Source: Nemertoderma westbladi (taxonomy: Eukaryota; Animalia; Xenacoelomorpha). Taken from it: a stretch of DNA of 57,275 nt. The notes beneath the pieces are model-generated. The model was given only the letters and a program-made list of their open reading frames with translations. It did no database searches and was not told the origin of the DNA. The translations under genes were made by a program, and so were the position numbers. Below, in pieces: positions 32,494 through 57,275 of the stretch (position 1 is the stretch's first letter; each line of letters begins with the position of its first letter). The stretch spans positions 1-57,275 of the forward strand of contig JAUCBJ010002023.1 in assembly GCA_032718475.1 (NCBI GenBank), given 5' to 3'.

Positions 32494-32748
<255 letters not shown>

Positions 32749-35900: not shown

Positions 35901-36300
35901 TGGATCGTGAAAATCCTGCGCTCTCCAAAAGATTCATGACATCATTTTTAGTGACCATCTTTTTGTCTAGGAAATATTGGTCTTTCTTGGAACCAATGAC
36001 TCTACGCAAAACAACCTCATGACTGTCAATGGGCATGCGACTGTCGGTATTATCGAATATTATTTCGACGAAGGCAGTGATTACCCGCGGGCCTGTACCC
36101 TCGTGCAGTAAGGCTTGGCGTTGTTCTGGTTTGAGATGACTGAATTCGTCACTTAAAACAAACTGGATTGCGTAGAAGAAATTGCTTTTACCCGAGCCAT
36201 TCCGACCAACAATAACATTGTGCTGTTTGCTGAATGGTTCAATAACGGTCTGGTCTTTATATGAACGAAACCCCTGAATTATAACCTGCTTTATATACAT
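32914..36300 (-). CDS. SMC3: Cohesin subunit SMC3, exon 1 (3387 nt)
   Basis: Starts MYIKQVIIQGFRSY (ATG at 36300). Walker A GRNGSGKS, acetylation loop GSKKDQY, hinge GDQVSRRGALTGGYYD, signature LSGGQ, and donor AAG|GTAAAG after AIQK. Total 1213 aa with exon 2. Confidence 0.98.
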
Positions 36301-36892
36301 ATCGATAATTGTTTCCCCAAACCCAAAATTTAAAGTCAACAAATATGAAATAAAGTGCTGGTCTGGCTGTCTGGTAGGACTATCGACTTTTGTGACGGAC
36401 TGATGGGTGATCAGATCAGTGATGTAAACCTGTAAAACGATACCGGTTGCCGGTTCCTAACTCATATTATTATACAGTTCTGCAGTTATACTGGTAGTAC
36501 AGTACAGCAATACACAATCAGACAATAGAGAATAGGCTAGTTAACATAGGTGACAGTCAGACCTATATGGAAAATTTACAAAAAGTGTGCCACACGGGTT
36601 CTGGTAAAACGAAAAGCGCGCCAGCCATGACATTCAATGCGCGCCAACCCCAACCATTCACCAAGAAATTTTGCAATTATTAGGTACCGGTACCGGTACT
36701 GTCTGACTGTATTATAGCCTATTGTAATAATTTATCAGTTTATACTGCAGCAGACCTACAGACCTATAGTATTAAAATATTAAAAGGAGTGCCTCAGTGC
36801 GTAGCGCGCAAATAAATTTTGCAGAAATATTAAGATTAATACAGTATTAGTCAGATAGTGATTTTAACGAGGTAGAATTATATCTTTATATG

Positions 36893-36935
36893 TCAGATGC
36901 CGTCTGATCCGATCCGATCCGATACGATCCGATGC
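36893..36935. repeat. Fragment related to the TIR of the 40030-54683 element
   Basis: TCAGATGCCGTCTGATCCGATCCGATCCGAT resembles TCAGATACCGTCAGATCAGATCAGAT at 54628. Confidence 0.5.
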
Positions 36936-37208
36936 AATTCAGCAATTATCCTAGCTACAACTGTCAGACTGCAGACTGTACAAGCCTAGCTGCTTAGGCC
37001 TACTTCTGTTTTGCCTATCACAGTTTCTCTAACACAATATCCGGGTAAATCTATTCGACCTACGCGTAGTTTGTAATTTCCATTCCTGTCATTTACCGGT
37101 AGGGCCAGAATTGCTGGTATTTTGAAACTACACGTAGCACTAACAAAGCCTGCTAACAAAGATTTTTCATTCCAGGTCCGGTAGGAGTTGAGTTGTTAGG
37201 CAAGTATC

Positions 37209-38945
37209 CCCAGCAAAGTCATAGCATGATAAGTCGCTGATAAATTGCTACTAATTTCGCCGGCTAATACCCATCAAACATATACCAAAATGTTCAGCAG
37301 CTTTAGGACTACTATCGTTGGTTTTGTAAAACATGGCCATTTGTATCTTCTAGAGCCGATTTTGTAACAATTTTTTGTACCCAATTTTGAAAAAACCGAC
37401 CTGCTCAAAAAGTGCCATAATTTTCGAACTAACGGTTTATGAATCTATCTATACTCAGTTTTCATCGTATATAAAAGCTCACAGATCATTGTGTTAAGGT
37501 TTCAGAATAGTAGCTTTATAAATAAAACAAATAGATTTGGGGTAATGGTCCCATAAATATATTAAAAAATTAAAGCTTGAGAAAATCTACCAAAACCATT
37601 ACACTCTTTATAGCAAAGGTTTTATATGCCGTTTTAGTAATGTTACAATTCTTGATGAAAACTATTTTTGCAAAGTAGGCCTACTTATTATTAAAGTAAT
37701 TAGTAGTTATTTGCACGCAGTCAGTCATCCAACGAAAATACTTTATATTTCCTTCGCAACATTTTCACAATTTCAGTTGTTTTTAGCGACTTGTTCTTTT
37801 GAAAGGGTTTGCGGAAAAATATCAATTTTCGGGCCATTTTTGGAAAGTACTAAAATGTGCCTTAGGGCCACCAGAGGCTTAATCCGGCACTGTTCGGATA
37901 TAGTACACGTATTAATACTGAAAAAATATGTGCTTTGTTTGTCCCCAGGATTTCCCTGACTGCCTGAAAGACATACTGTAGTCAGATACTGTAGTCTCGT
38001 TTGTACAGGTGTCTGACATTCTGACAATAACATACTGTAGGGCAGTATGGACATCGCCTTTACCTCTAGCTCTGCCATACACTCAGACCTGCAGACTCTG
38101 GATACATGGATTTCCGCACCTTTAAGGACAGACACAGCATCACACAGTAATTAATGGATTTATTTCATAAAACAATATGAATGGCACTGGACATAATATA
38201 GATCAATTTTCTTTGCTTCAGATTATATATTATTATATAATCGACAATTCTAAAGAACTGATAACTTTGTACTAATTTATTGCTATATATGGTCCCCAGA
38301 TAAAAAAATATTCGGATTATTAGTAGGCATAACTACAGTATATAATTATTATTTTACTCTCAGAATTTGCCGGATAAAACATAACATAGGCCTACAGTAA
38401 CTATGCATAACTAAACAAAACTAAGCTAAATGATCCAACCTTCGAAAAGTCTACAAATTTATCCTTCGTTTAGAAGGTAATTTATCCTTCGAATAGTAGC
38501 ATAAATTATCATTCTAAACGCAGGATAAAAACTATAAATTCATCCACCCTTCGAAAAGTCTACAAATTTAGCCTTCATTTAGAAGGATAATTTATCCTTC
38601 GAATAGCAGCATAAATTATCCTTCTAAACGAAGGATAAAAATTATCAATTCATCCACCCTTCGAAAAGTCTACAAATTTATCCTTCGTTTAGAAGGATAA
38701 TTTATCCGGCGAATAGTAGGCATATTTATCCTTCTATTTGCCGGCTAAAAACTAGCTAAATCTTCAGAATCTTCGAATAGTCTTCGAATTTATCCTTCGT
38801 TTAGAAGGATAATTTATCCTACGAATTGTAGACTGAATTATCAGACAATTTAGACGGCGAAAATGCTGATAATTTCGAAGAAAATTTATTTCGATCAAAT
38901 TAGCAGCATATTAGTAGCAATTTCGAAGGATGTGACTTTGCTGGG
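37209..38945. mobile_element. Non-autonomous CMC/EnSpm-like DNA transposon, 1.74 kb
   Basis: TIR CCCAGCAAAGTCA...TGACTTTGCTGGG, 2-bp TSD TC, and a ~110-bp subterminal tandem repeat at 38438-38830. Confidence 0.85.
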
Positions 38946-39284
38946 TCGGTATATGTCAGGTATCCTGGTGATTATCAGACAAACGGAATAACGGGATCGG
39001 TAGCTCATCGCTCTACATACAGCATCGGTAATAAATCATATTGGGCTCTTTCAAATACAAACACGGGATGAATAAAAAGTAGACTTAAAATCCACGTATA
39101 TTACCAAGTCCCTTTTTTTATCATTTTAAATATTCTACAGTCAGACAGTACAATAAGCTACCAGTCTACCGGTGAAGTGATTAAACGAAAGCTGAGTACA
39201 CACACACACTATAATTCAATTGTCAGATTGTTTCATAAAAACAAGTGCAACATAAATCCCCTCCCATATCCAGTCCACCGATTC

Positions 39285-40029
39285 AATATACCAGAATATA
39301 ATAACAGCCCACAAGGAATCAGCTAAGAGGCATATCCCCCAGAAACCCAAACGAAAACAGTACGTGCCATGACAAAACTCTGAGGTTAGTTGTAAGAGAG
39401 AAGATCTTAAGATAGCCTACAAAGTTAAAACCGAACAACCAACAACCGAAAACAATAACAAGGTTGAGAAAGCTAAGGACGATCTTAAATTGGCCTACAA
39501 CATCAGCCAGGAAAAGTACATACTGTACAGGCTGACAGAGTAAAATTGAAGCAATTACAACTGCTCACATACAGCAACAATCAAGACTTACCTGGCAAAC
39601 TGTAAATGAGGTATCTGGTCGGAAAAGTTGTGCAAAGGGGCGCCTCAAAGCCGATAGTCCTGATAATAACGTGTTGGGAAGTGGAAACATCACTTCAGCA
39701 ACTTGCTTGGGCAGCCACCAAACATCGAGGTCAGCCCTACAAGGAAAATATATGACAAGACACTCGCCTATAGAAACAGGGGACTTACACCTGCCGAACT
39801 CCAAATAAGCATTAAAAGCATGTCCAATAATAAAGCGAGTGGATTAGATGAAATCCCAGCGGAGGCCGGATGTTAAAAGGGGAAAGGCCACCACCAATTT
39901 GGACTAAAGTTCAACTAAAGCCTCTCCCCAAGAAAGGAGACCTTGGTATACCAACAAACTATCGTGGGATCGGTCTGCTTGTGGTAGCTGCCAAAATATA
40001 CAATAAAATGATTCTATATAGGATTAGGC
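39285..40029 (+). mobile_element. Old degraded RTE-clade LINE, 5' piece
   Basis: Remnant translations such as NNKASGLDEIPAE and PLPKKGDLGIPTNYRGIGLLVVAAKIYNKMILYRIR align with the intact LINE ORF at 45.4-48 kb. Many frameshifts. Confidence 0.85.
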
Positions 40030-40836
40030 GAGGTAGAATAAAACGTCTGTCCTTATCTGATCTGATCTGATCTGACGGCATCTGATCCTATAACCAATCA
40101 GGAGAAAGAGATACAGCGATACAGGTAAATAGCCAATATAGGAGATCAGGTTGCCATGTTACGTATCAGTATCATCATACGACAACAGTAGGCCTTCAGG
40201 CATACCGGTATGCAGCCAAGGCAGCAAAGGCATGTTAAAAATGCGATATACAGTACTGTAGGATGAAGGATGGTGGGTATGAAAGTTGTGTGATTGCCCC
40301 AGCAAAGATGGATAGTTTCAGATGGAAACAATTTTCGCAGATTTAGTTGGTGTTGAAACATTAATCATTTATTAAAAACAATACAGCCTTTCTGCCTTAG
40401 CTGCAATATTTTAGTAATCTTTCTTGTTAATAGTTGTCAATATAAAATTAATTATATTAATTATAATTAATATTATTGAATAATGATACTGTACTTATTA
40501 GTATATTACATTTAAAATATTTATTGTTTTTTGTTTGTTACGCTAAAGGCTGAAAGGGAAGGCAGGAAGAGGTACAGTACCTATGTACAGTACTGTACTG
40601 CCGAATATGGCAAAACACATTAACATGCCCCATATTCAGTCAGGCAGATCATCAATTTTGGGGTTACCCCAAATTTCGAATTCTGGTAATAGACTGTCGA
40701 AAATTGGGGTTTTTTGTTCAAATTTGAGGTATTTTTAGGCTCATAATATCGAGTGATGCTGTTGGAGCAACTTCTACTTTTAATATGTCTGTATGTTAAA
40801 ATATAATGTAAAATAATAACTTTTATCGATGCAATA

Positions 40837-41275
40837 GGGTCCTACGAATTACCCCAAAATACCCCAAAACACCCCAAAATACTCCAAAATACCCCAAAAT
40901 AGTCAAAAATTACCCCAAAATACCCCAAAAAGGCTAAAAAATTACCCCAAAATACCCCAAAATAAGCTAACAATGTTTTTTAACAGCGAGGGAAAGGAGC
41001 AGGTTACAGTGGCAAGTTTTTTTAACCAAAACAATAAACGAGAGTGAAGAAAAATTTTTTAATTATTTTGGGGTAATTCGTCATTATTTTGGGGTAATTC
41101 GTCATTTTACCATATTTTGGGGTAAATTAAATTTCCAAAACAAAGGCTCAAAAAAAAGTATTTTGGGGTAATTCTAAACTATTTTGGGGTATTTTGGGGT
41201 AATTATAAACTATTTTGGGGTAGTTTTATACTATTTTGGGGTGTTTTGGGGTATTTTGGGGTAATTCGTAGGACC
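40837..41275. mobile_element. Foldback/Mutator-like MITE with (ACCCCAAAAT)n arms
   Basis: GGTCCTACGAATTACCCCAAAAT inverted termini and a perfect 9-bp TSD GATGCAATA (40828-40836, 41276-41284). Confidence 0.88.
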
Positions 41276-41640
41276 GATGCAATAAAATATTTCACCGATG
41301 CAAACATGCTTTTATTGGGGGCGAAAATTGAAATTTGAGGTTAAACCTCAAATTTGAGACAAAACCTCAAATTTCGCCAGCCTTTACAACATCACCAGCC
41401 TGTCAGCAGTAGGGTTTAGCAGTAGGCTTTGCTGCTTAGTGCTTATAGCAGTATAGAGCTTGGTGAGAATGGGTGACCAGTGTAACCTGTGGCATGACAT
41501 GTATGCAGGGTACAGGGGTAGGCTTAACCTTACAGCACAGTAACTTACTGACTTACAGTCAATAACTTTAATGATTGTTAACTCCGTTAGTGATTGGTGA
41601 GAAAAATGCAGAAGACTAGAGAAATTTGCTATCCTAAGCC

Positions 41641-42049
41641 TTACTGTTGGTAAGAAGAACAGTCTACCAAATCCTCAATGTTGCGAGATTCAAGCTCACA
41701 CAGCTGCACAGTCACAGACTCAGGAAGGCCTACTACTGTATATCTTGTAGATGTTGAATCAATTCCAGAATTTGGAAGTTTGCATATTCTGGCATTCGTC
41801 TGTGGTCTGTTCTGTTCATCATTCATATCACACATCTTCGGAAAAAAATATGTTTTCTGGTTGTTGATGTCCTCTTTTAAAACTTTGTATATCAAATGAA
41901 GCCATTCCTCCCCTGATAGCTTGAAGACTTATGTAATTTTCGCCTGCCCTAGCTCTATCTGTCAATTGGAATTCTGTACCATCAGTTTGGAGCCCATTTC
42001 TAGACAAATGTTGTCGCAAAGGTTGACAGGTTGACGTGGTTTATACAAT
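41641..42049 (-). pseudogene. Degraded coding remnant with a SAP-like motif, inside the CAG-ended element
   Basis: LRQHLSRNGLQTDGTEFQLTDR fits the SAP pattern L+..L...GL...G.K..L..R apart from K>E. It is frameshifted and cut by the CMC-like insertion; coding-like sequence continues at ~43842-44480. Confidence 0.4.
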
Positions 42050-43841
42050 CCCAGTAAAAAATCCCCATGCGTAACGCATTCGTACAACATGCAGCATTCG
42101 TAAAAGGTGCGTGCAATGTTATTTAAGATTCGTGAAGCCTTCGTCAATGGTTCGTCAGTCCGAATAATTTAACGAATGCGTATAGTATTCGTATCGCATG
42201 TGAGAGTTCACTTGTAAATATATTCGTGGCTCATCATTCGTGGCACATGCGATACGAATGCTTCCACACCACACAAAAAATAATTCGTGGTTCATTCGTT
42301 CGTACCACATGCGATACGAATGCTTAGCCACGCCACGCTTAAAATTATTCGTGGTCCATTCGTGACGCATGCGATACGCATGCAAAGCACTCTCAATTAG
42401 AGTACCGTACAGACTGTAATACTGACCAATCACCATTCGGCAAAGAATCGAACATAGTGTTATTAGTTAGTAGCTCTCCCCCTTTGTTACCAGTCAGCCA
42501 GTCCTATGTACTTTTACTATATATTTATTTAATGGGTTGCCCAGTAATTCTCAACTCCCATTTATTATTTTGGTTCCCCATTATTTTGGTATGTAAACCT
42601 GTTCCCTTTACCAACATGCTTGATATACTGTAATAATGTAAAGGTTATGTACTGTAGGGTAGGTGAGATAAATAATGACAACATAAAACTACAGTATTAA
42701 CGTAACGAACTACAGTATGTAGGCATACTTATAGTATGTAGGCACTAGGCAAGGCAGGCACCCCCCCCCCCCCCCCCACCCGTAGTTTTAGCCTCTGTAC
42801 AGTAGTACTCATTTCCCAAAGTTATTACAGTAGTTTTATGTTGTCATTATTTATCTCACCTGGCCTACAGTACAGTACCAATACATATTATAAAGCATGT
42901 GGCATTTTTATTAAATTATACGTGTGTATGGTGATATTCTCACACAGTTTCTTAGGCCTCCAGGTCGAATTTGTTTAATTCGCTATAAAAAGCCATTAAA
43001 AAGTCTACTGATATACTGTAGCAGTTAATTACCGGTTACTGCTACAGTAGGCCCTACACTTATTAATGGTAAAAAAATCTTACAGACAAAATACATCAAA
43101 GGCATACATTTTATGAGATGCATCCACATAATTTCAATGTTTTTTTTACTATATTCTAGAATATTAATTCGTTTTTTTTCGATAATAAGTAATAAAATAT
43201 ATATATAATAATAATAAAAATATATATAATAATAAAATAATATAATATAATAATAAAATAATATAATAATAAAATATCATAAAAAATAATAAACCATCAA
43301 TAATAATTAATATAAGTATAATAATAACTATAACGATTTACGTCTGAAATTGCGTGCTCTTGAATTATATCTGAACATTTTTTTGGGGAAATTGAAAATG
43401 GCTTTCATATTCGATTCGGAATATCAAGTATATTTAAAAAAATAAAATAAAATGGACACGTTTTATCAGTTGTAAACTGTTAAAACTATGTAAACTGTAG
43501 CGAAATAATAAAAAAATAAAAATCCTGCGGTAAACATTCGTATAACACTCGTAAAACATTCGTAACGCATTCGTATAGCGCGGGAAACATTCGTATATAA
43601 CATGCGGGACGCATTCGTATCGTGTGCGGGAAACATTCGTATAAGATTAGGGACGCATTCGTAGAATGTGCGGGATTCGAATAAGGTTCGTATTACATTC
43701 GATATGCGAATAAAGGATGCGTATTTGGTTCGGTTTTCGCATTCGTATCGCATGGTTCATCTATGTAACATTTCAGAATGCGTTACGAATGCGTGAAATA
43801 TGCGCCATCCCATGCGTTACGAATGCGGATTTTTTACTGGG
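42050..43841. mobile_element. Non-autonomous CMC/EnSpm-like DNA transposon, 1.79 kb
   Basis: Perfect 15-bp TIR CCCAGTAAAAAATCC, 2-bp TSD AT, and dense GCATTCGTA/TACGAATGC subterminal repeats at both ends. Confidence 0.88.
42650..42873. repeat. Inverted-repeat MITE inside the CMC-like element
   Basis: AGGTGAGATAAATAATGACAACATAAAACTAC pairs with GTAGTTTTATGTTGTCATTATTTATCTCACCT. Confidence 0.65.
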
Positions 43842-44608
43842 ATATATGTGGACTTGATTCTTTTGTTAGTTATTCTATATGACTAGAAACTGGAGACTCT
43901 AACAGTCTAAAGTTGGAACCACTACCTTCTACAGTATACTTCAATTAAAGTTCAATTTGATAATGTGCTTTAAACTTATATGTAAAGATCTAAACCTGAT
44001 CCTCCATTACAACAATGTGCAACATCATCGCAGAGTATTTTAATATCCCAGCCAGACATCCAATGCAATCATGACCTGGCCAGTGGCCATATATATAAAA
44101 TTATGAAGCAATGGCCAAGCCCCGCCCATGCTGCCATGTCTGCATGTTCCAATGTTCCATACATCACCTCTTCTTTATCAGGGTTATTAACATATGGAAT
44201 ATGCTGGACCTGGAACACAGTAGAAACATCATCATCTCATCACTAATCGCTAGTCTTTTAAACAGTCTTTAGACTCTGCTTTCTTATCAAGACATCTGAA
44301 ATGTTTTAGAAATCTAAGTGACTGTTTGTTTATAGGCCTACTATACATACATACATCCTTTTAAATTGACCTTATGAGGAACCAGAATCATTTATAACTT
44401 GGGCAAAAAGTATAACCTTTTTCACTAACCTATTCTCGAGGCTTTATCTCATTTCTTGCCTTTCTCGACACCTTGCAGGCACTAAAGTTGCATTGCAATG
44501 GTGTGTTGTGTAGGGATGGATTTTGCTCAAATTTCGATCAAAAATTTTGATCAAAAATTTTGATCAACACATTCAATGAAATTTTAGAAATTCCACCAAA
44601 AATATTTT

Positions 44609-44891
44609 GGCACTTGTGTCAAATCAAATAGGTGACCCTCCTAATCTGCTAATCCTGAAATCACCAGCTATTGCTGAAATTTAGTGCAGGTGATATCAAT
44701 ATTCCTAACTCTTGTTTATTGTTTTTTGGTTACTTTCAACTCACCTCTGTAACCTGCTCCTTTGCTTTGCTAACCCTGTACTGTAACCGGGCACTAGTGA
44801 AAGTGACTTTAGTTTTGGTGATTTCAGGATTAGCAGAATAGGAGCTAGGAGGGTCCCCTACAGCGCTACAGCCCTATTTGACACAAGTGCC
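44609..44891. mobile_element. MITE with GG termini and long imperfect TIRs
   Basis: GGCACTTGTGTCAAAT...CTGCTAATCCTGAAATCACCA and its inverse. Flanks AATATTTT and AATGTTTT form an 8-bp TSD with one mismatch. Confidence 0.75.
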
Positions 44892-45379
44892 AATGTTTTA
44901 TTTTACTTTTTTTACCTGGAGAAAAAGTAAAATCACTGCAAAATTATGGCTCTATGCCTATGGTACATTATTATGTGGCAATATTATTCAATATTATTGC
45001 AGGTTGCTGTCTGGCTGTGTTGCCGACTTTGCAAAAGCTGTGCCCAACAAAAAGTTACAATATTCAGATATTATGGGGACAACTTTTTCCCTACCAGTAG
45101 GGAAAAAAGTAGGCCTACTACTTTTTCTCCCGATTTTAGGGCATAGGCCTATTCTTAAGCAAAAAAGTAGCCTAACAATATAAAAATATAAGTTCTTTAA
45201 GCTCTGTACTTCATTTTATATGTCTACCATCTAATACTGAATATGTTTTAAATATTATATTTCACAACACTCAGACACTACCCTAGGCTTACATCAGTTT
45301 ATTTTTTTACCTTTGCAATACAGTAACAAACTAACAACTACTGAACTAGGCCAACTATGACTTCTGTCTGTATCTGACT

Positions 45380-48055
45380 ATGCCAGTATGCAGCTATGTA
45401 TGCTACTTCTCATGTTCTGGAAGACTGGCTAAGAAGTTTCCTAAGGTGGTTCTGATTGTGTGCTACTCTCCAACTAGTGTTGCCCCTGTAGAGGAGGTGG
45501 AAAATTTCTACCACAATCTACAAGCAGCAACTGATGGAGTGGATCAGCATGCATTCTTAACATTCCTGGGAGACTTTAATGCAAGTCTGCATCAATCACC
45601 TACATCGCCCTGGGTCTATAGCAATAGTGTTAACCGAAATTCTGTCCATCCTCAGGATTTTATCTCTGGAAATGGATTGTTTTCGGCTGGAACCCAGTTC
45701 AAGAAGCGAACTGGAAAGCTATGGACTCATAGTGGACCCAGTGGTCACAAGTCCCAGATAGACCATATTCTGTTTCGTAGGAAATACAGGAGCTCTATAC
45801 AAGACTGTAATGCATTTACACTTCGACCCTTCTCCAGTGATCACCGCCTTATTGTGGCCAAGGTAAGACTTAGTCTGCGTGCTAGCAGAACAACGAAATC
45901 TGCCTTGCCACGGCATGACTGGTCCTCTCTGTTGCAACAGCCAAGTGTGAGATCCAGCTTCACACTACAGCTGAGCAACAGGTATGAGGCTCTTGCCTCT
46001 GAGGCGGCAGATCACTGTGAGGGCTATACTGCCTTTACAGAAGCAGTTAAGTTAGCAGCTGCAGAAACAGTTCCTGTATACCCTCGAAACAGGAAAAGGG
46101 CCCCCTGGACTGACAACAAAATTCAGAAGTGCCGAAATGACCTTCATAAGGCGCAGAAAGAGTCCCGACTCAAACAGACTACAGCGGCCAAGAATGCAGT
46201 TAAAGCTGCATCTAGGTCCCTGAACAGGCAGTACTCTGTTAATCTACAGGAGCTAATAAACCAACAGGTTGATGCCATCAATGATGCTGACGACAGCAGG
46301 CAATCATCCCAGGCATGGAGATCGATCAATCTGCTTACTGGGCGGAAAAGCCAACCAACCACCAAGGTTAAGGCTGAATCACCAGCCGATCGCCTCAATG
46401 GCTGGAAAGACCACTTTGAAAAGCTCCTCAATAATGACAGGGTATTGCCTGATAACTTTATAGAAGTAAAAGTGTCTGAGTCTGTACTCCCAGATATTCC
46501 CATTGGCGATATCTCCTTTGCAGAAGTGAAGGCTGCTGCAAAGAGCATTAAGACCAATCGTGCCAGTGGAGTAGATGGTGTTCCCCCTGAGGTCTTTAAA
46601 ATACCTGAGTGTTTAAAGCTCATCTATCCCATCATAGTAGACATGTACCGTACAACAAGAGTCCCACAAGAAATGAAAACAAATAAGTTGGTGCCAGTTC
46701 CCAAGAAGGGCAACCTAACACTCTATGGTTCTTTTCGGGGAATCTCATTGATATCGATTGCTGCAAAACTATACAATAGAATTCTATTAAATCGCATCAG
46801 GGATCCCATTGAGAGACTGCTACGTGGAAATCAGAATGGGTTCCGTAAAGGTCGTGGGACCATGGAGCCCATTTTGGCACTTAGAAGGATAATTGAAGAG
46901 TTATCAAAAAAGAAAGACAGGCATCTGGCTGTTATCTTTGTTGACTTCTTCAAGGCCTTTGATTCAGTCTCTCGCTCACGTATGTTCAGCATACTTTCAT
47001 TATATGGGATTCCTGATGAAATTATTGCAGCAATCAGATCAGTATACGATGGTTCGACAACATTTGTGTCTACTGTTGACGGTGACACAGAACCATTTGA
47101 AGTGTTATGGGGCGTCCTCCAAGGAGACACACTTGCACCATTCTTGTTCATTATTGTGGTTGACTATGTTCTACGCATGTCCTTAGATCATCATAATGAT
47201 GATGGGGTGATGATAACTCCACCTACTGGCTCCAGAAGTCGAGGAAATCCTGCCAAGTACCTAACTGATCTAGACTTTGCTGATGACTTAGGAGTACTCT
47301 CAGAATCATTAGAGGGAGCCCAGCGGCTCCTCAGCTCATTAGAACATGCTGCTTCTAGTGTTGGTCTTTTTATTAACTCCAGAAAGACCAAAATTCTGAC
47401 AGTTAACTTTGAAAGTCCTCAGCAAGTCTCTGATCGGATGAGCATAAGCTCAAAGGATGGTATGCTTGAGCATGTGGACGACTTCTGTTACCTGGGATCA
47501 TGGATCCGGAAGTCAGGTGAGGACCTTCGAATACGTAAGGGAAAGGCATGGGCAGCCTTGAATAGGCTTTCCAGGATTTGGAAGTCACCTAGAATTAATC
47601 GGAAACTTAAGGTCCGATTATTTAGAGCAGCAGTAGTTCCAGTACTCCTCTACGGGAGTCCATGCTGGGCTCTAACTGCTGAGGACACCAAATCTCTGGA
47701 TGGCACATTCACAAGAATGCTACGCCGGGTACATTGTGTCAAGTACAATGCACACATCTCCAACCAGACACTATATAACATTGGAGGTGTCTCATTGGTT
47801 CCCCCAAGCTTGACACTAGAACAAAATCGCCTCCGCTTTGCAGGACATTGCTTTCGCCGTGAGGACCAGCCAGTGCATAATCTTGTACTATGGCAGCCTC
47901 ATGGAGTGAATAAGCATGGTGGACAGCCCATGACTTTCTTGAGACGCATCTTAAAGGACACTGGCCTTAAAGATGCGGATGATCTAGCAAATGTCATGGG
48001 TGATAGGGAGTTGTGGCGGTGCAATTTTGTTGACAAGCCGGCACAGCATTCTTAA
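45380..48055 (+). CDS. RTE ORF: partial AP endonuclease plus reverse transcriptase (the ATG lies in flanking DNA)
   Basis: APE motifs CYSPT, GDFNA, QIDHIL and SDH. RT motifs QNGFR, DFFKAFDS, GVLQGDTLAPFLF, DLDFADD and FCYLGS. C-terminal RLRFAGHCFRR. Confidence 0.9.
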   Translation: MPVCSYVCYFSCSGRLAKKFPKVVLIVCYSPTSVAPVEEVENFYHNLQAATDGVDQHAFLTFLGDFNASLHQSPTSPWVYSNSVNRNSVHPQDFISGNGLFSAGTQFKKRTGKLWTHSGPSGHKSQIDHILFRRKYRSSIQDCNAFTLRPFSSDHRLIVAKVRLSLRASRTTKSALPRHDWSSLLQQPSVRSSFTLQLSNRYEALASEAADHCEGYTAFTEAVKLAAAETVPVYPRNRKRAPWTDNKIQKCRNDLHKAQKESRLKQTTAAKNAVKAASRSLNRQYSVNLQELINQQVDAINDADDSRQSSQAWRSINLLTGRKSQPTTKVKAESPADRLNGWKDHFEKLLNNDRVLPDNFIEVKVSESVLPDIPIGDISFAEVKAAAKSIKTNRASGVDGVPPEVFKIPECLKLIYPIIVDMYRTTRVPQEMKTNKLVPVPKKGNLTLYGSFRGISLISIAAKLYNRILLNRIRDPIERLLRGNQNGFRKGRGTMEPILALRRIIEELSKKKDRHLAVIFVDFFKAFDSVSRSRMFSILSLYGIPDEIIAAIRSVYDGSTTFVSTVDGDTEPFEVLWGVLQGDTLAPFLFIIVVDYVLRMSLDHHNDDGVMITPPTGSRSRGNPAKYLTDLDFADDLGVLSESLEGAQRLLSSLEHAASSVGLFINSRKTKILTVNFESPQQVSDRMSISSKDGMLEHVDDFCYLGSWIRKSGEDLRIRKGKAWAALNRLSRIWKSPRINRKLKVRLFRAAVVPVLLYGSPCWALTAEDTKSLDGTFTRMLRRVHCVKYNAHISNQTLYNIGGVSLVPPSLTLEQNRLRFAGHCFRREDQPVHNLVLWQPHGVNKHGGQPMTFLRRILKDTGLKDADDLANVMGDRELWRCNFVDKPAQHS

Positions 48056-48103
48056 AAATGCAGCTGCAATGCAGCATGCCGATCCTAGTAGTAGTAGTAG
48101 TAG
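45399..48103 (+). mobile_element. Young 5'-truncated RTE-clade LINE
   Basis: Uninterrupted frame to 48055, very short 3' UTR, (TAG)6 tail at 48086-48103, and a candidate TSD AGCTATG (45392-45398, 48102-48108). Confidence 0.93.
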
Positions 48104-48267
48104 CTATGAAATTCAAATTTGGGGTAAAACTCAAATTTAGAGAATTAACCTAACCTTGTATTAAATTTGAGGTAATTCCAAAATTGGGTTTATAATTTGA
48201 AATTTGAGGTATTCTCAAATTTGATGATCTCCCTGACTGATATTGCCCTGATTGCCAGCTGATACAG

Positions 48268-49129
48268 CGGAGTTTATACCCAAACGATGAAGGAAGATCG
48301 AAAGGTGGGTGGGAAGGTGGAAATCAATAAACGATGTTTTTACCTTCCAATTGAAGGAAAAGAGCAGGTTACAGCGGCGGCAATTTCTAACCAAAACAAT
48401 AAACGATGTTGTTGAAAATTTTCACCCACCGCCGAAAAATACAAGTTTCAGAATTCTTATGCAATTTTTACACATTCCATTGAATTCCGATCCCTCACAA
48501 ATCCGTATAACGCAAGAAACCCCATACTCAGATACTTCCAAAAAACACAAGTTTGAGATGTATAGTTGTTAGATAAATATTTATAAACCTCTAAAATGTA
48601 AGATAGGATTACAGTATAAGTTGTCACAATCAATTGAATTATTGAATGAATTTTCAAAAGTTCTTGCTGGCACCAAATTTTGCACACAGCACCGAAAAAT
48701 ACAACGTTGATGATATGCCTGGTGCAATTTTCATATATATTCCAACGAGACTAGAATGCCTAAAAACCCCTATTGCGGAAAAAACAGCTTCAACGTTATC
48801 GTGTCTGCACTGCATGGTACTTCACATAGCGCGCCATTTGGTGGTCTCGGGTGAATGTTTGGATTTGACCTAACCATATAGGTTTACTACTGCAGATCCG
48901 CAGCGGGCACATCGGGGCAGGTGTGGGCCATCGGAATCCGACAAGGCAGTGCACATATTGACATTTGGCGTATGTACATTTCTTACAGAAGGGAGCCACT
49001 GGTTAAGAGTAAAAAACAGCTTCAAATACTCAATTTACAAAATTGAAATATTTCAAAATTTGGGGCTGGCACCAAAATTTGGTACCCGCCGCCAAAAACA
49101 AGATTAAAATTTCTAGCTTATTTTATATG
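48268..49129. repeat. Unclassified non-autonomous repeat that is the target of the Gypsy insertion
   Basis: Contains the shared MITE core at 48356-48405 and internal repeats (GCTGGCACCAAA at 48667 and 49064; AAAAAACAGCTTCAA at 48779 and 49011). Ends not defined. Confidence 0.45.
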
Positions 49130-49134
49130 AATTC

Positions 49135-49356
49135 TGTTAGGCGACCGTGTAGTGGTCGGTAACAATGTTCAGTAGGCCACTGTCTGTACGTGACAGCAAT
49201 GTAGGCCTGTCTGTCTGTGGTGTAAGAAACAAGATGTATGACATACGACAGTCTGTACTTCTATTCTGACAGTCTAACTATAATCATATTACACAGTAAG
49301 CTGCATGGTACAAAGGTGCTATATTATGTTAGGTCCTCATTCCTAGTATCCTAACA
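49135..49356 (-). repeat. 3' LTR
   Basis: Identical by eye to 54112-54333. Confidence 0.97.
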
Positions 49357-49508
49357 TCACCCCCACACAAAATGATTTGTTATACTGTATGTCTAATAAA
49401 GTTTTGAATTATGGGTACTCTACGTATCTCGAGTTTATCCACACATATAATTCTTCAACCAGTATATGTTGTTATATTTAGTTCGAGTTCGTATAATTAT
49501 TGAATTCA

Positions 49509-52500
49509 TCAAACAGTATATTGTTTCCCACTTCGCAATGTTTTTATTACTTGACCTTGACCTTGAGTCTGTCCCGGTTCCCGCGTTGCTGGATACTGAG
49601 ATTGTCCCTGCGAAATAGGATCAACCGAAGTACCTTCCTGTGTGGATCCTTGGGTCGGTTCCATGATGTCACCACGTCCTGTTGCTAGTGGTAGACCGCC
49701 GGTTGGTACTCTTTTACCACTTCCGACACTGGGACCTGCTCCAGCGTGACGGCTCATCGTAGTAGTTGGATTCGAATTGGTAATGGATGTGGTACCTTCT
49801 TTGTCATTCCATGGGTTGTATCGACTCCTTATTTGGTTAACATTGCGTTTGACCAAAATATCACCAACTTTAACCATGTATACTCGCGATCCAATCCTTT
49901 TTATTATTCGTCCCGGGAGCCACTTTACAATTATTTGCCCCCTACCCGGTCGACTATAGTTTTTTATCCAGACCGCTTCACCGATCTCGAATTTTCCACT
50001 TGTTTCGTCGCTTTTGTTACTCGTCACTGGATATTCCAATAACCGTTCTAACCGAGTCTTTGTAGGATATTGGAAAATTGATTCGTTCGGGGTTTTTCCT
50101 CTTGGTGTGTACAGTGAATTTCTATCCTGCATTAGGAAATTACTGATCTTATCTTGTATAGTATCGTTTTCGATACTGAACTTTTGTTTCTTCATCGAGT
50201 TCTTTATACTTTGCACGGTTCTTTCAGCAGCACCATTTGAAGTTGGTGAATAGAATGCGGAACTCCAATGAGTTATACCGTTGTCTGTAAAGAAACTTTC
50301 TATTTCTGTTGAAATGAACTGTGGTCCATTATCACTAAATATTATCGCCGGAATTCCTGTAAATGCAAACATATTTTTCATTTCTGTTATAATTGTAGAA
50401 GACTTTGCATTCTTTAATACTCTGGCATCTTTCCAACCAGAATACGTATCAACCATACCTAAAATCGTATGTTCTTCGAAATCTGCTAAATCAGTGTGAA
50501 TTCGTTCAAATGCTGCCTTAGCTGTTGGTAATGACACATATTCTTGAGGTGGACTGTTGGCGAATTGTTGACATGGTGTACACTCTTTGATGAATAACTT
50601 TATATCATCTACTATACCAGGCCACCAACAGATGTCTGCTGCTTTTGTGAGCATTCTTCTTTCTCCGATGTGTGCGGAATGTAGTTCCTTCATTACATGT
50701 GCCTGTAAGCTGGATGGTATTATAATTCGATTACCACGCATAATTATTCCTTCTTTGATTGTAAGTTCAAATTCAATAGCTTTGTAATGACGTAACTCAG
50801 GATTATTTGTTTGTATCTTTTCGCCATATTCGACTGTGCGTTTCAAATGACATAATCCCGGATCAGCCTCAGTAGCATCTTGTAATCCTTGTTTGGTTAA
50901 AGGAATGTCTACTATGTTTTGTTCCTGTTGTAAGTCCATAGCTCGAATGTCTATATCTGATTTATCCTTGTAAATATTATCTTTGGTCGCAGGTGTAAGT
51001 CTTGATAATGCATCAGCAATATTCTCTTCTGAACTAATAGCTGTAACTGCGTAGTTATGAGCTGCTAGCTCAACAGCCCAGTGTTGTAACCTTGAAACAG
51101 TCGTAGCAGGAAGCGCTTTTAATGGACCAAATATTCGTTTGAGTGGTCTGTTATCGGTAACGATTGTAAACTTATGACCGATTAAGAATTGCTGGAATTT
51201 TCTTGTACCAAACATTATAGCAAGTGCTTCCCTGTCGAGCTGGCTATATTTTCTCTGATGCGTATCAAGTGTAGCTGATGCAAAAGCAACTGGTGTGAAT
51301 TCACTTTTCTCATTAATCTGCCCCAATATGGCAGATACAGCCTTTTCAGACGCATCGGTGATTAATTCCGTTTTCAACGATGGATTAAAGTGAACCAGTA
51401 GTGTACAATTCGATATGGCCTCCTTCACATTATTGTATGCATTGTTGGCTTCTTTTGACCATTCAAATGGTGTATCTTTCTGTAGTAATTTGTACAATGG
51501 GTTGGATATCTCCGCGTATTTGTGTACATACTTCCGTAAATAATTCATAAAACCCAATGCACTTTGTAATTCTTTCTTTGTGGATGGAGGTTTCATATCC
51601 CTGACTGCTTGTACCTTCTTTGGATCTGGCAAAAATCCTTTGCTTGTAATTATATGCCCACAGAATTCCACTTCTGACTTCACAAATGAACATTTCTTCA
51701 TTCCTATAGTAAGTCCAGCTTCCCTAAGTGCTGTAAACACTGTCTGGAGATCCCGTAAGTGCTCTTCCATATTGTTAGAAGCTATTAGAAACTCGTCCAT
51801 GTATGATACTGAAATGTATTTGCTCAATGTACAATGAACAACTTTAAGACATTTGGCTGCAGCTGGAGTGATTCCATATGGCAACCTTGTAGGTTTTAAC
51901 AATCCTAATGGTGTCGCTAATGTAAGCAGCGCTTGGCTTTCTTTATCAATTGGCAATTGGTTGTAAGCTTGTGCCATATCCAACTTCGTAAAAATTGTCT
52001 TGCCCTGCAGTTTGGCGGACATTTCCTCTTGAGACATTAAAGGGAAATAATCTTCTATGAGGTACTGATTTACAGTGCTCTTATAGTCCCCACAGATTCT
52101 GACGGATCCATCGTTTTTAGGCATAATTACTAATGGTGTAGCCCAATCAATGTTTTCTCCCTCATCTGTATGTACTAGACGTCCTTCTTTTATGTCAATC
52201 TTTAATTGTTCTATGACTTTATCCTTGTATGCATGTGGGACTGATCTTGAATGAAGGAATTTGGGATTTGTGTTTGATGTTTTGATCCTAATTTGTAAAG
52301 GTTCTCCCTTATAACATCCCACGCCAGTTAGAACCTCTGTAAATTCTTGTAACATGGTTTGTAACCGATATGGAAGATCTTTCGTGTCTAACTGAGTATT
52401 TTGGATTTTAATATCCTGTTGTAACAACTCATCAATACTAGTTCCGCGATGCACTAAATGTTGTAGCCAATATAGACCAAATAATGGTGAATTTTCGGTT

Positions 52501-53792
52501 TCACTCTCCTCTGCAATAATTAGCGGCATATTTTCTAACTTTGCCACATTTGTACCTGGGAATTCAACCACAACGTAAATGACTCCCTTGATCCTGGCAG
52601 TTCCTTTGCAGTATCCACGTAACTTTGAAGGACAATCATGTAATTGTATATCTTGGAACTGTTCATCGTATTTGTTGTATGGTAATATGCTATGCTTAGC
52701 GCCAGGATCGAATTCCATTTGTATTTTCTTATTATTTATAAGAATATCTAGTTGAATCGAATTGACTTTGGGTAAAGTCACTGTATTAATCTCAACTTCA
52801 TTGCCTAAATCCTGTAAAATATCTGTATGTTTCATGAATAAATCGTCATTGTACTCTCCTTCATCTATGTCAACCATTCCAACTGAGCCTCTTTCACTGT
52901 TTGGCTTAAACTGATTAGATCTGGTTGCATTACGTTTTTTAAAACATGCCGTTTCAACGTGTCCCTTAGCTTTGCAATATCGGCATATGATATGTTCTGG
53001 CATTCTGCATTCTGTAATTTTATGGCCTTGTTTTCCACAACGGTAGCAAGTAATCTGCCTACTTTGACTAACCTGCCGTGGTTGTGAAGTATATGAATTT
53101 GAACTACCTCTGCTAGTTCCTCCATGGTATCCTCCACGACCCCGGCTGTTTCCAAACCGACCACGATTGGAGGATCCTTGGTCTCTCTGACTTGTATTAA
53201 CACGTTGTATCTCAATCTCTGATTTGTTTCTATCATATGCTATGTTGCGAGCTTCCTCAAAGCTAATTGCCGTATTTAGCGCTTCAGGGAATGTATCTTC
53301 CTGCTTTTGTATCAATTCGGTTGCAACATGATTATCTATTAAACCAGCAGTCAGCTGTTCTCGTAATTGGCCATCCAAATCTGTAAATTGACAATCTCTG
53401 GCAAGGTTACGCAATCTTTTTGCATAATCTGTAATGCTTTCCTCTTTTTGCTGTGTACACAGTCTGAATTTTCTCCTTGCTGCTTCCTTGGACTTGCCTT
53501 TGCGATAGTAAGTTGTAATGGTATCCAACAATGTATCAATTGGATCCTTTGCAATATCTGCTGGATATCGTAAATCATTCAGCAGATCTAATGTTGCTAA
53601 ACCGCAGTTCGAAATGAATATATCTGTCTTGGCTTGTTCTTCTTCTAATGCTGTCATTGCTGTATTGTCCGGTTTCACCCAGTTTGTAGTTCTGAGAATC
53701 GTACGGAACATAACCAAGTATGTCTCCCACCGGTCTTTCTCAGGGTTAAAAGGAGCACAAACGTTACTGTATTTAACGCCTCTGTAAGCCAT
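49509..53792 (-). CDS. Gag-Pol polyprotein (Gag with two CCHC knuckles, protease, RT, RNase H, integrase), 1427 aa
   Basis: Knuckles CYRCGKQGHKITEC and CRYCKAKGHVETAC; protease FDPGA; RT VRICGDYK, KLDMAQAYNQ and YMDE; RNase H DAS, DREALA and ADALSR; integrase HHCC, IHTD, SDNGPQF and SNGAAER. The PR-RT-RH-IN order is Gypsy. Confidence 0.97.
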   Translation of the reverse strand: MAYRGVKYSNVCAPFNPEKDRWETYLVMFRTILRTTNWVKPDNTAMTALEEEQAKTDIFISNCGLATLDLLNDLRYPADIAKDPIDTLLDTITTYYRKGKSKEAARRKFRLCTQQKEESITDYAKRLRNLARDCQFTDLDGQLREQLTAGLIDNHVATELIQKQEDTFPEALNTAISFEEARNIAYDRNKSEIEIQRVNTSQRDQGSSNRGRFGNSRGRGGYHGGTSRGSSNSYTSQPRQVSQSRQITCYRCGKQGHKITECRMPEHIICRYCKAKGHVETACFKKRNATRSNQFKPNSERGSVGMVDIDEGEYNDDLFMKHTDILQDLGNEVEINTVTLPKVNSIQLDILINNKKIQMEFDPGAKHSILPYNKYDEQFQDIQLHDCPSKLRGYCKGTARIKGVIYVVVEFPGTNVAKLENMPLIIAEESETENSPLFGLYWLQHLVHRGTSIDELLQQDIKIQNTQLDTKDLPYRLQTMLQEFTEVLTGVGCYKGEPLQIRIKTSNTNPKFLHSRSVPHAYKDKVIEQLKIDIKEGRLVHTDEGENIDWATPLVIMPKNDGSVRICGDYKSTVNQYLIEDYFPLMSQEEMSAKLQGKTIFTKLDMAQAYNQLPIDKESQALLTLATPLGLLKPTRLPYGITPAAAKCLKVVHCTLSKYISVSYMDEFLIASNNMEEHLRDLQTVFTALREAGLTIGMKKCSFVKSEVEFCGHIITSKGFLPDPKKVQAVRDMKPPSTKKELQSALGFMNYLRKYVHKYAEISNPLYKLLQKDTPFEWSKEANNAYNNVKEAISNCTLLVHFNPSLKTELITDASEKAVSAILGQINEKSEFTPVAFASATLDTHQRKYSQLDREALAIMFGTRKFQQFLIGHKFTIVTDNRPLKRIFGPLKALPATTVSRLQHWAVELAAHNYAVTAISSEENIADALSRLTPATKDNIYKDKSDIDIRAMDLQQEQNIVDIPLTKQGLQDATEADPGLCHLKRTVEYGEKIQTNNPELRHYKAIEFELTIKEGIIMRGNRIIIPSSLQAHVMKELHSAHIGERRMLTKAADICWWPGIVDDIKLFIKECTPCQQFANSPPQEYVSLPTAKAAFERIHTDLADFEEHTILGMVDTYSGWKDARVLKNAKSSTIITEMKNMFAFTGIPAIIFSDNGPQFISTEIESFFTDNGITHWSSAFYSPTSNGAAERTVQSIKNSMKKQKFSIENDTIQDKISNFLMQDRNSLYTPRGKTPNESIFQYPTKTRLERLLEYPVTSNKSDETSGKFEIGEAVWIKNYSRPGRGQIIVKWLPGRIIKRIGSRVYMVKVGDILVKRNVNQIRSRYNPWNDKEGTTSITNSNPTTTMSRHAGAGPSVGSGKRVPTGGLPLATGRGDIMEPTQGSTQEGTSVDPISQGQSQYPATREPGQTQGQGQVIKTLRSGKQYTV

Positions 53793-54096
53793 TGTAATTT
53801 GTTGGCTAACTGTATTATTGTTGTATTGCTGAAATTCTATTAGTAACTTGCTGAGGCTGACTGTAGCGTAGCCTGCAGACTGTCAACTGTATAGTATTGC
53901 ACTGTATTGTACAACTGTAGCTGTACTACCGGTACTGTAGACTGTAGGTAGGTAGGAGTGTAGGCCTACCGGTTTCCGGTCCGGTTAGACGGTACAGTTC
54001 AATCTTTGCCGTTTCATCTTCTGTATTGAAGAACACCAACGCATTATAATTAAATGTACATAAGGTATAATTAAATTAATAATTGAGTTTATATTT

Positions 54097-54108
54097 ATCG
54101 CAGCGCCA
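54097..54108 (-). other. Primer-binding site
   Basis: TGGCGCTGCGAT begins 3 nt after the 5' LTR. A Ser-type tRNA primer is plausible but unverified. Confidence 0.75.
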
Positions 54109-54111
54109 ATT

Positions 54112-54333
54112 TGTTAGGCGACCGTGTAGTGGTCGGTAACAATGTTCAGTAGGCCACTGTCTGTACGTGACAGCAATGTAGGCCTGTCTGTCTGTGGTGT
54201 AAGAAACAAGATGTATGACATACGACAGTCTGTACTTCTATTCTGACAGTCTAACTATAATCATATTACACAGTAAGCTGCATGGTACAAAGGTGCTATA
54301 TTATGTTAGGTCCTCATTCCTAGTATCCTAACA
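54112..54333 (-). repeat. 5' LTR
   Basis: TG...CA termini, adjacent to the PBS. Confidence 0.97.
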
Positions 54334-54379
54334 AATTCCTTTTAGTTAGTAGCGTTAGTTACAGAGAGTGAGGGGGGGG

Positions 54380-54595
54380 GTTAAGGGAATACCGGGGAAA
54401 GTTCACATGCTGACATGGGCAGAAACTCCAGTATTCATTTAGCTACCATTTAAGGATGCAAGGCAGGCAGAGATGCCTCGCTAAACTCTTCAAAGCATTC
54501 GTGACGAAACAAAATCTACCTTAGCCCCCATGCCGGGATTGAACCCACAACCTCCGTGAGATGTGAATTCAATATAACCACTACACCAAGCTGCC
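54380..54595 (-). mobile_element. tRNA-derived SINE (3' boundary approximate)
   Basis: Minus strand GGCAGCTTGGTGTAGTGGTT (A box) and GGGTTCAATCCCGG (B box), followed by a non-tRNA body. Confidence 0.7.
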
Positions 54596-54683
54596 AAGGT
54601 GGGCTCTGAATCAAGGTGGAACAAGTGTCAGATACCGTCAGATCAGATCAGATCAGATAAGGACAGACGTTTTAGCCATCCTA

Positions 54684-55415
54684 GGATTAGGCCTCACATA
54701 GAGAAACTACTGCGTAAGAGCCAAAACGGATTTCGACCAAGTAGATCAACAATAGCTCAGATACTGTACTTGCACTACGGAGACTGATTGGAGGAATTAA
54801 GTCAAAGAATCTTCCCGCAGTCATGACTTTTATGGACTTCAAGAAGGCATTCGACTCCATCCATAGACAGATAGAGGTAAAATGCTTGAAATCCTAAGAG
54901 CTTATGGAATACCAGAAGTAATTGTTGATGGCATTGGATTGTTATATTGTGACACACAGTACACAGAAGCGCAGGTACTCTCACCAGATGGTGAAACTGA
55001 GTTTTTCTCAATCCTGACTGGCGTACTGCAAGGTGACACATTAGCACCATTTACTATTTGTAATTATGCTGGATTACGCAATGAGGACGGCCACAAACGG
55101 TGAAGATCTGGGATTCACACTTCAAGAACGCAGAAGTAGTAGATATCTGGCTGTCTGGCAACTATAGTCACAGACACCGACTTTGCGGATGATATCGCCC
55201 TGCTAAGGAGGTTGGATTGCATATAAATGCTACCAAGACCGAATTCATGACCTTTTACAGCTTTAATGTTGATGGAAACTTGACAACCATTGATAATAAT
55301 CAACTAAGGAAGATCGACGACTTCCAGTACCATGGATCATGGATAGAGAGTAGCAAAAAGGACATAGAATGTAGAAGTTAGGAAAGCAAAGGCTTGGCAG
55401 CTTGGGTAGCTCTAT
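54684..55415 (+). mobile_element. Old degraded RTE LINE, 3' piece (continuation of 39285-40029)
   Basis: RIRPHIEKLLRKSQNGFR, DFKKAFDS, GVLQGDTLAPF, DTDFADDIALL and RKAKAWVAL, with frameshifting micro-insertions. Confidence 0.88.
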
Positions 55416-55430
55416 CAAAAAAGCTCTATA

Positions 55431-55705
55431 CAAAATGTTCTAGAACATTGTGTCTGTTGTGTATTTATTAATAGAATAAATGGCCTGTAGCGGAAGCAAA
55501 TACATGCAAAATTCGAATGCCCATATCTCAGCTATTTACCAACCAAATTCACATATTTTTACATATATTTGGAATCCTTGCACGGTCAGCTTTCCACTAG
55601 TAGACTAGTACCAACAAAGCTAAAGAATGAAAGAAAGACGTAGCTAAAGAATGAAAGCGAAAATAATAATTCTGGCTCACCCAGCCACCAGCAAGGAGGA
55701 GGGAG
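55431..55705 (-). repeat. Dispersed repeat family A, inverted copy
   Basis: Reverse complement of 1-296 with small insertions. Confidence 0.8.
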
Positions 55706-56220
55706 GAGAAAGTATCTCTGTTTCAAATTTCATGCAATCTCATTAAGATTTGTAGAAAAATTTGGGGGGGGGGGGAGGTACAGGTACCTGAATAACGACA
55801 CTATATTCCAGAACATGGTGTAGCGGTGTAGGCCTACTGTACTGCTGTATGCAGGTATGAAGATATACCGTACTGCCGTAGTCCTTTGCTTTGCTTTTTT
55901 TGCATATATATACAATTTAGGCCTACCCTACCGTACCTTCCACCTTCACCAAATTACTACTGTTGACTAGAAAAATGAAATCAATTAACTGATGAAATAG
56001 AAATGTAATTAAGGATTTAGGGCGGCCATGCTCTTTCATTCGTGCATTCAGGAATTATACAGCAGTACAGTACCCACTACCCAGTAAGCCGGCAGGGCCG
56101 GTTAGCGGAACTACTATCACTATTATACTACCACATACCAGTTACCTGGGCGGGATACAGGGCTGCAAGAATAAACAAGTCTGCTACCTACCTGCCTACT
56201 GCCAACACAACAACAGACAG

Positions 56221-56450
56221 GGGTGTAAACGCTACGCGGACAACCGTCAGCCGACAACCAACGCCGACAACCATTATTAAAGCTAATTAATGTTATTTAT
56301 TATTTGATGGAAAGGAACAGGTTACAGTACTGTAGAAGGTTATTCTAACCACAACAATAAACGAGAGTCACGAACTCAGTTTACATTTTCATATTTGCTG
56401 TTGTCGGCAGTGGTTGTCGGCTGTCGGTTGTCGGCGTAGCGTTTACACCC
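56221..56450. mobile_element. Mutator-like MITE, 230 bp
   Basis: TIR GGGTGTAAACGCTACGC with CCGACAACC subrepeats; TSD AACAGACAG / AACAGACGG (9 bp, one mismatch). Confidence 0.85.
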
Positions 56451-56459
56451 AACAGACGG

Positions 56460-56620
56460 GGGTGTTTGAAAAAGGTGGACTGGACACAGAAAACATGGAC
56501 AGTGGACAGACCAATCACGGGCGAGTTGCGTCACACAGCATGTCCACCCTTTTCAGCTTTGTTGTCCACCTTTTTCAAATTTGAAAAAGGTGGACTGGGT
56601 TGAGAAAGAACAGGTAATGA
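56460..56620. repeat. Adjacent MITE remnant with TTTGAAAAAGGTGGAC direct and inverted repeats
   Basis: The motif occurs at 56465, inverted at 56564-56579 and again at 56580; a partial shared core follows at 56602. Confidence 0.55.
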
Positions 56621-56869
56621 AATGATCAATCAGATTGATTTGCACATTATATTGTACTGTAGCAGCTTTTTAAGTTAATTAGTTTTTTAAGTTTTTAAGG
56701 ATTATTGTTATTATTATCCCATACAGTACTTACTGTGACCAACCGAAGTTGTCCAAGTAGAGTAGTTCAATAATATGGGCGAGCCACGAAGTCTGTGAGC
56801 TGACCCTTAGCATCAATATTTGCACGTTAATATTCTAACACATTACACGTTAATTAATAACTACTGTAT

Positions 56870-57013
56870 CTATTGTACGGTAAATATATGCTTTATTTAC
56901 TGTACCGTTTGTCCAGAGATCTGTTATTAAACTACCGAGCGCAGCGAGGTGGGTAAATAAGACAGATGGAGGCGCAAAAAGGTCAATAAAGTATTTTATT
57001 TATTGTACAATAG
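56870..57013. repeat. Palindromic MITE-like element with a central ACCGAGCGCAGCGAGGT motif
   Basis: CTATTGTAC...GTACAATAG ends and imperfect arm pairing. Confidence 0.55.
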
Positions 57014-57275
57014 GCCAGCCTATGTAGTTTTATTGTTAAAATCATGCTTATTATTATTATAATTACTGTTCTAAAAGAAATTGTTTAATAAATAAATTTT
57101 GTCAATATTGCACCAGTCGCGCCGCCGTTTTACTTCATTCTTATACAGTAGTGATTTGTTTGTAGCCATGGAAATCTGCCGTTGCAACGATTCTAAATAC
57201 TATGTAAGATAATTATTAGTTTCGTTCAAAAATATATTACTTAATATAAATATTAATATTGTATGTTTTCCCCCA

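Follow-up and report, generated by a model that had tools for sequence, protein, structure and literature searches.

N5-CAG/CTG-N5 motifs in a Nemertoderma westbladi contig: an insertion signature with a plausible donor element in the same window

A recurrent short motif right of the SMC3 start

The window analysed here is the whole 57,275-nucleotide stretch of Nemertoderma westbladi DNA from contig JAUCBJ010002023.1 (assembly GCA_032718475.1; forward strand, positions 1 to 57,275). It contains an SMC3 gene on the minus strand, and its right third is a nest of mobile elements. The DNA to the right of the SMC3 start carries many copies of a motif in which the same five bases stand on both sides of CAG or CTG (N5-CAG/CTG-N5, or N5-CWG-N5; hereafter N5 scars), and an element that has terminal inverted repeats (TIRs) as well as CAG...CTG ends lies among them at 40637-48239. 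The motif is genuine, the case for it as an insertion signature is strong, and this element is a plausible donor for it.

We counted 43 exact N5 scars in the window (19 with CAG and 24 with CTG), 39 of them from position 36362 onward. A first-pass annotation of the same DNA had listed 21 sites; all 21 are exact at the positions it gave, but the list was an undercount, with 18 of the 39 sites in its range missed. Apart from the sites described in the next section, the scars from 36362 onward are distributed as follows.

36362..36947: densest cluster, seven scars (36362, 36475, 36514, 36698, 36731, 36754, 36935), just upstream of the SMC3 start
37955..40796: scars 37955, 38084, 39137, 39219, 40545 and 40784
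41508..41711: scars 41508, 41543 and 41699, inside the candidate element
42022..45391: scars 42022, 42490, 43898, 44126, 44135, 44641 (doubtful), 45006, 45060, 45267, 45336 and 45379
48524..54598: scars 48524, 54405 and 54586, with none in the young Gypsy element between them
55837..56199: scars 55837, 55847 and 55868 (stacked, with a TA-CTG-TA), 56058 and 56187

In a set of old non-coding DNA of 13,518 bp (36300-45350, 48060-49130 and 53880-57275), 38 N5 scars are found. Markov controls of order 1, 2, 3, 5 and 6, with 100 simulations per order, gave means of 0.48-2.11 and a maximum of 8, and permutation of the flanks gave a mean of 0.9 with a maximum of 5 in 2000. The motif is specific in repeat length and in spacer: the CWG spacer is found between repeats of three, four, five, six and seven bases 5, 6, 38, 3 and 2 times, respectively, and when all 3-mer spacers are ranked at k=5, CWG comes first with 38 of 457 occurrences, the second by rate reaching 4 of 138. 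The sharp peak at k=5 with CWG spacers, which the first-pass annotation had proposed as a test of its reading, is thus present. The 39 scars comprise 33 distinct 5-mers, so they are not copies of one repeat. Sites with one mismatch between the two 5-mers are also in excess (34 against 8.4 expected, maximum 21) and look like older scars. At 32 of the 43 sites the match does not extend beyond five bases, for which reason we rejected the idea of a footprint of a hAT element with an 8-bp duplication. The spacer could be explained as flank-templated P-nucleotides at 5 of the 43. Scars are stacked at 44126/44135 and at 55837-55868, and the site at 44641 may be part of a small inverted-repeat element, since the opposite arm carries a near match to it.

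N5 scars are unevenly distributed, with 2.8 per kb right of the SMC3 start against 0.29 per kb in the 13.8 kb of non-coding DNA upstream. The coding DNA of SMC3, RTE and Gypsy, 10,349 bp in all, has none, as expected if scars accumulate with age and are purged from genes. Scar density has no simple link to CpG depletion, being high both at a CpG observed/expected ratio of 0.21-0.35 and at 0.86.

Related motifs occur in the same DNA. N6-CWG-N6 is present at 38759, 48242 and 55448 (three sites against 0.24 expected, p 0.002). TA-CAG/CTG-TA scars number 40 in the 13.5-kb set, about as dense as the N5 class, and 17 in the 13.8 kb upstream; their density differs only about twofold between the window halves, and the N5-rich zone begins at the SMC3 start codon. 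TA-GGCC-TA (9 sites) and TA-CCGG-TA (5 sites) also recur in the 13.5-kb set.

N5 scars as 8-bp insertions

The motifs are 8-bp insertions, which is demonstrated for four scars. The relevant sites, together with two related ones, are listed here.

41444..41456: scar TATAG-CAG-TATAG; 8 nt absent from the high-depth family contig
41734..41740: TA-CTG-TA, a scar like those of Sleeping Beauty; the family contig lacks 5 nt
54863..54875: scar ATAGA-CAG-ATAGA; +8 frameshift in a decayed RTE-like long interspersed nuclear element (LINE)
55146..55158: scar TCTGG-CTG-TCTGG; +8 frameshift in the decayed LINE
55393..55405: scar CTTGG-CAG-CTTGG; +8 frameshift in the decayed LINE
55448..55462: variant scar N6-CTG-N6; 9-bp insertion relative to two paralogous copies in the window

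We compared the region 36300-43100 (6.8 kb) with four public runs (X1-X4) from at most three samples, using contigs only; X2 and X3 are two runs of one sample, and one of the four may be the source of the assembly itself. At 41444, an 8-nt gap is present in contigs holding 854/889 of the depth in X1 and 3479/3506 in X3. Over 41417-41839, 36 nt are missing from one X1 contig; the four N5 scars and the TA scar in this interval would account for 37, and from this total we infer that the scars at 41508, 41543 and 41699 are also absent from the family contig. The 36 nt of extra sequence, matching about five scars, stand beside 8 substitutions, and at 41417-41839 scars thus approach substitutions in frequency. 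Single-copy contigs of X1 and X3 cover 36300-36618 without a gap, so that the scars at 36362, 36475 and 36514 are present in read-derived sequence, which makes an assembly artefact unlikely; absence of the scars from raw reads had been named beforehand as an outcome that would speak against the footprint idea. In the same interval, a 5-nt gap sets the single-copy contigs of X2 apart from those of X3 and may be a segregating TA scar.

The decayed RTE-like LINE (54680-55430) gives a second view of the insertions. All three of its N5 scars stand at +8 changes of frame, and deleting 8 nt at them rejoins reverse-transcriptase motifs. Likewise, the TA-CTG-TA at 54762 coincides with a +5 frameshift. 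An N5-CAGT-N5 motif is found at 54952, at an in-frame insertion of three residues.

Target preference

The 5-mers were taken as targets in the 39 scars from 36362 onward. G at positions 1-2 and C at positions 4-5 are depleted (10/156 against 29 expected, p 2e-5), C at positions 1-2 and G at positions 4-5 are enriched (57/156 against 29 expected, p 2e-7), and the centre is mostly A/T. The 5-bp target, initially proposed to be of free sequence, is thus not fully free and has a palindromic bias. A central CWG is present in 7/39 targets against a background of 3.4%, suggesting that a scar may help to seed the next insertion.

A candidate donor element

A search of the window for inverted ends bordered by a 5-bp duplication returned three pairs. 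Two are A/T-rich low-complexity matches, and the third reads ATATT, CAGTCAGG... at 40637 and ...CCTGACTG, ATATT at 48239. The parts of this element and the inserts nested in it are as follows; TSD stands for target-site duplication.

40637..48239: candidate donor-type TIR element with CAG...CTG ends, inverted ends and ATATT duplication
40632..40636 (+): left TSD, ATATT
40637..40682 (+): left TIR, beginning CAGTCAGG, followed by subterminal repeats of the AAATTTGAG type
40827..41274: nested miniature inverted-repeat transposable element with a duplication of about 10 bp; absent from family contigs (joint 40826-41275 in 4/4 runs)
42050..43841: nested CCCAG...CTGGG element with an AT duplication
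45350..48108 (+): nested RTE-like LINE with a 901-codon open frame and a TAG-repeat tail
48194..48239 (-): right TIR with subterminal repeats
48240..48244 (+): right TSD, ATATT

The two arms are 85% identical over 47 nt (E 2e-7, one flanking base included) and share their subterminal repeats. The 19-base end motif occurs exactly twice in the window, at the two ends of the element, with 0.01 expected. The scar spacer equals the terminal three bases of the element, which also has the matching 5-bp duplication. The donor anatomy predicted from the scars, CAG termini and a 5-bp duplication, is therefore found in the same window. A family with such ends and duplication, as put forward by the first-pass annotation, is supported, and the 3-nt staggered cut that it also proposed would follow from the shape of the scars.

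After subtraction of the nested insertions (the LINE has a candidate 7-bp duplication, read by eye), the element is estimated at about 2.5 kb. Its interior has about 30-65x the single-copy depth in X1-X3, which, depth being a rough guide, corresponds to roughly tens of copies. It itself holds 14-15 scars, and these would record later hits by other copies. An N6-CWG-N6 motif, at 48242, abuts its right TSD. The pair 36748-55839, considered as a second CAG element, was rejected since it is built of scar-like words, and no other CAG element with a 5-bp TSD and a convincing TIR was found in the window. A scan of metagenomes for the TIR motif gave 40 loci without further similarity to the window, which we read as chance matches, and a scan of viral contigs gave none.

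The interior of the element was also searched for coding capacity. Pfam returned nothing relevant, neither a hAT nor a RAG-like domain, on open frames or on frames read through stops; the two word-seeded searches had no match at E<=10. The sole HMMER hit, to a repetitive AAA_12 protein, was rejected as spurious, and the likeness of 41831-42019 (minus strand) to SAP was judged only by eye. Masking the scars and nested inserts did not restore a long open frame, the longest being 88 codons. As no transposase was detected, this copy is probably non-autonomous or too decayed.

Excision footprints and their alternatives

We favour the reading, to which we give a probability of about 75%, that the motifs are excision footprints of a family of DNA transposons of the cut-and-paste type, with CAG...CTG ends and a 5-bp target duplication, acting by a Sleeping-Beauty-like chemistry. 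The element at 40637-48239 is likely one member of this family. On this model, a transposase supplied from elsewhere in the genome would cut its target with a 5-bp stagger and insert the element there, with a loosely palindromic preference that avoids G at positions 1-2 and favours C and an A/T centre. By analogy with Sleeping Beauty, excision would cut the non-transferred strand 3 nt inside each end, and both flanks would retain a CAG-3' overhang. The two overhangs would pair with one central mismatch and be joined, and repair of the mismatch in either direction would leave TSD-CAG-TSD or TSD-CTG-TSD about equally often (19:24). The scar could then recreate a favoured N-CWG-N target, a step with some support, and scars would as a result cluster and stack.

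Several observations weigh against this reading. The 8-nt gap at 41444 is in the minority in X2 (151/2668) and absent from X4 (0/61), and about three further frameshifts in the decayed LINE lie away from such scars. There is a single candidate element in the window, a 3-bp TAT duplication is an alternative parse of its ends, though one that needs two chance matches, and no transposase was recognised in it by Pfam, word-seeded searches or a full HMMER scan. Among the matches listed for the 6.8 kb compared with contigs of the four runs, an interval that stops short of the element's right part and of the scars in the LINE, none has an element at a scar position. The density of N5 scars also differs tenfold between the window halves. 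Finally, we know of no superfamily that combines these features, nor do the papers cited here give one.

The same donors might instead be mobilised by a hairpin-forming transposase of the hAT5 or CMCT/Transib type, the first nick falling 3 nt inside the element and the opened flank hairpin carrying CAG; we consider this unlikely, though it deserves more weight than the other alternatives. hAT elements often have subterminal repeats, as does the candidate element with its short TIR. hAT5 is described as a hAT group with 5-bp TSDs (PMC12730594), a length seen here in the ATATT of one element and in the k=5 peak; the third base of hAT ends is G, and CAG is a frequent reading of them (PMC1131882, PMC3014272); and in CMCT elements the ends are CA..TG and the TSDs 2-5 bp long (PMC12730594). 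Transib/RAG transposons are described as duplicating 5 bp and preferring palindromic targets (CASTG and CAWTG in two mosquito families; PMC1131882), which, with the CA..TG ends (PMC12730594), makes a further likeness. However, hAT excision is reported to leave heterogeneous footprints, with insertions complementary to the flanks and deletions (PMC3499496), whereas the spacer here is a constant, element-derived CWG, templatable from the flank at 5 of the 43 sites mentioned above. Transib ends are given as CAC, within a heptamer/nonamer layout (PMC1131882), whereas the terminus here is CAGTCAGG. Transib targets are GC-rich, unlike the A/T centre and avoided G at positions 1-2 found here, and donor-flank hairpins are expected of Transib/CMCT elements, as are hairpin-type scars of Transib. 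In the read-through frames scanned, Pfam gave no match to a hAT transposase with its C-terminal dimerisation domain, nor to a RAG-like domain.

It is more improbable still that no whole element was ever present at the sites, and that the 3 nt are what an integrase or transposase left after abortive strand transfer, or what remains of retroelement insertions with extreme 5' truncation. This would suit the very high density, since a stretch of 423 bp with 8 substitutions also has 4 N5 scars and 1 TA scar, which demands many cycles of insertion and excision, and a 5-bp duplication is likewise made by the Gypsy element in the window. Insertions of truncated LINEs differ in length and in TSD size, unlike the sharp peak of scar repeat length; long terminal repeats (LTRs) end in TG...CA and the tail of the local LINE is a TAG repeat, neither of which yields CAG/CTG; and a full element with the predicted ends exists in the window. 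As for ordinary 8-bp slippage duplications that later mutated, a microsatellite effect or an assembly artefact, we give them hardly any credence. Full 8-bp tandem duplications are found at 376, 384, 36754 and 42022 (4/43), two of them forming a short array, and these four could be slippage. The remaining evidence points the other way: most sites do not extend beyond five bases, the spacer is specific, where slippage would enrich all spacers equally, no scar lies in the 10.3 kb of coding DNA of the same assembly, and three scars recur in contigs of X1 and X3, though one run is possibly the assembly's own sample.

Relation to known families and significance

We compared the scars with those of Tc1/mariner elements. 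Sleeping Beauty leaves TACAGTA or TACTGTA, that is TA-CAG-TA or TA-CTG-TA, by a 3-nt overhang chemistry, and the Tc1/mariner footprint is described as the first or last 2-4 bases of the element between the duplicated target (PMC6943129). The N5 scars resemble these in having the target duplication on both sides of three terminal element bases, with CAG and CTG in similar numbers, and TA scars are also abundant in the window. They differ in their target: five bases, occasionally six, that vary (33 distinct among 39), with ATATT as the TSD of the element, in place of TA; the net insertion is 8 bp here and 5 bp there. Tc1/mariner elements encode a DD(34-41)D/E transposase, and no coding homology was seen in the decayed, probably non-autonomous copy here. 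We assign the feature to no named family: it lacks the TA target of Tc1/mariner, the footprint of hAT and the CAC ends of Transib.

In the literature, covered by titles and the starts of abstracts, with Repbase Reports, where hAT5 was defined, and most subscription papers outside this scope, we found no description of an N5-CWG-N5 footprint geometry and no footprint data for hAT5. The accessible part of PMC3845634 has no 5-bp CAG family, and PMC6004678 and PMC3517528, considered as sources on hAT5, concern unrelated elements of similar name.

The length of the TSD and the chemistry of excision are taken as superfamily traits that go together: TA and element-derived overhangs for Tc1/mariner, flank hairpins and 5-8 bp for hAT and Transib/RAG. 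A family mixing the two would imply an uncharacterised transposase, or a hAT5 enzyme that cuts unlike other hATs. We rate at even odds the broader proposal that an undescribed lineage of cut-and-paste transposases couples a mariner-like 3-nt recessed cut to a nearly free 5-bp target, and has cycled so often that locally there is about one 8-bp scar for every two point substitutions. If so, transposon excision would be a leading source of small frameshifting insertions and would leave a readable fossil map of past jumps. At up to 2.8 per kb, and breaking reading frames, the scars are a sizeable source of mutation in this animal. Such a scar is a countable signature that needs no surviving element; a scan of any genome for it takes seconds, and it informs on local activity, on the preferred targets and, through perfect as opposed to one-mismatch copies, on relative age.

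Other features of the window

32749-36300 (-): SMC3 gene; its first coding exon is a single one of 3.4 kb, and a short exon, the last, lies near 32510-32750
49133-54333: young Gypsy-type LTR retrotransposon with a 1457-codon open frame, near-identical LTRs and an AATTC duplication, without N5 scars

The best matches of SMC3 reach 55-56% identity and come from several invertebrate phyla; none is a close relative. A second CCCAG...CTGGG element lies at 37209-38945; like the one at 42050-43841 it has internal tandem repeats, and contigs that skip it exist in X1-X3. The left part of the window includes an 18-kb satellite (4301-22286) with a 36-bp period and about 480 copies, a minisatellite of 45 copies of a 15-bp unit (31195-31850), and a 153-codon open frame (1798-2259) without a Pfam match, which ends in D-x-G-x-Y-x-C, a sequence we take to be an Ig-like motif.

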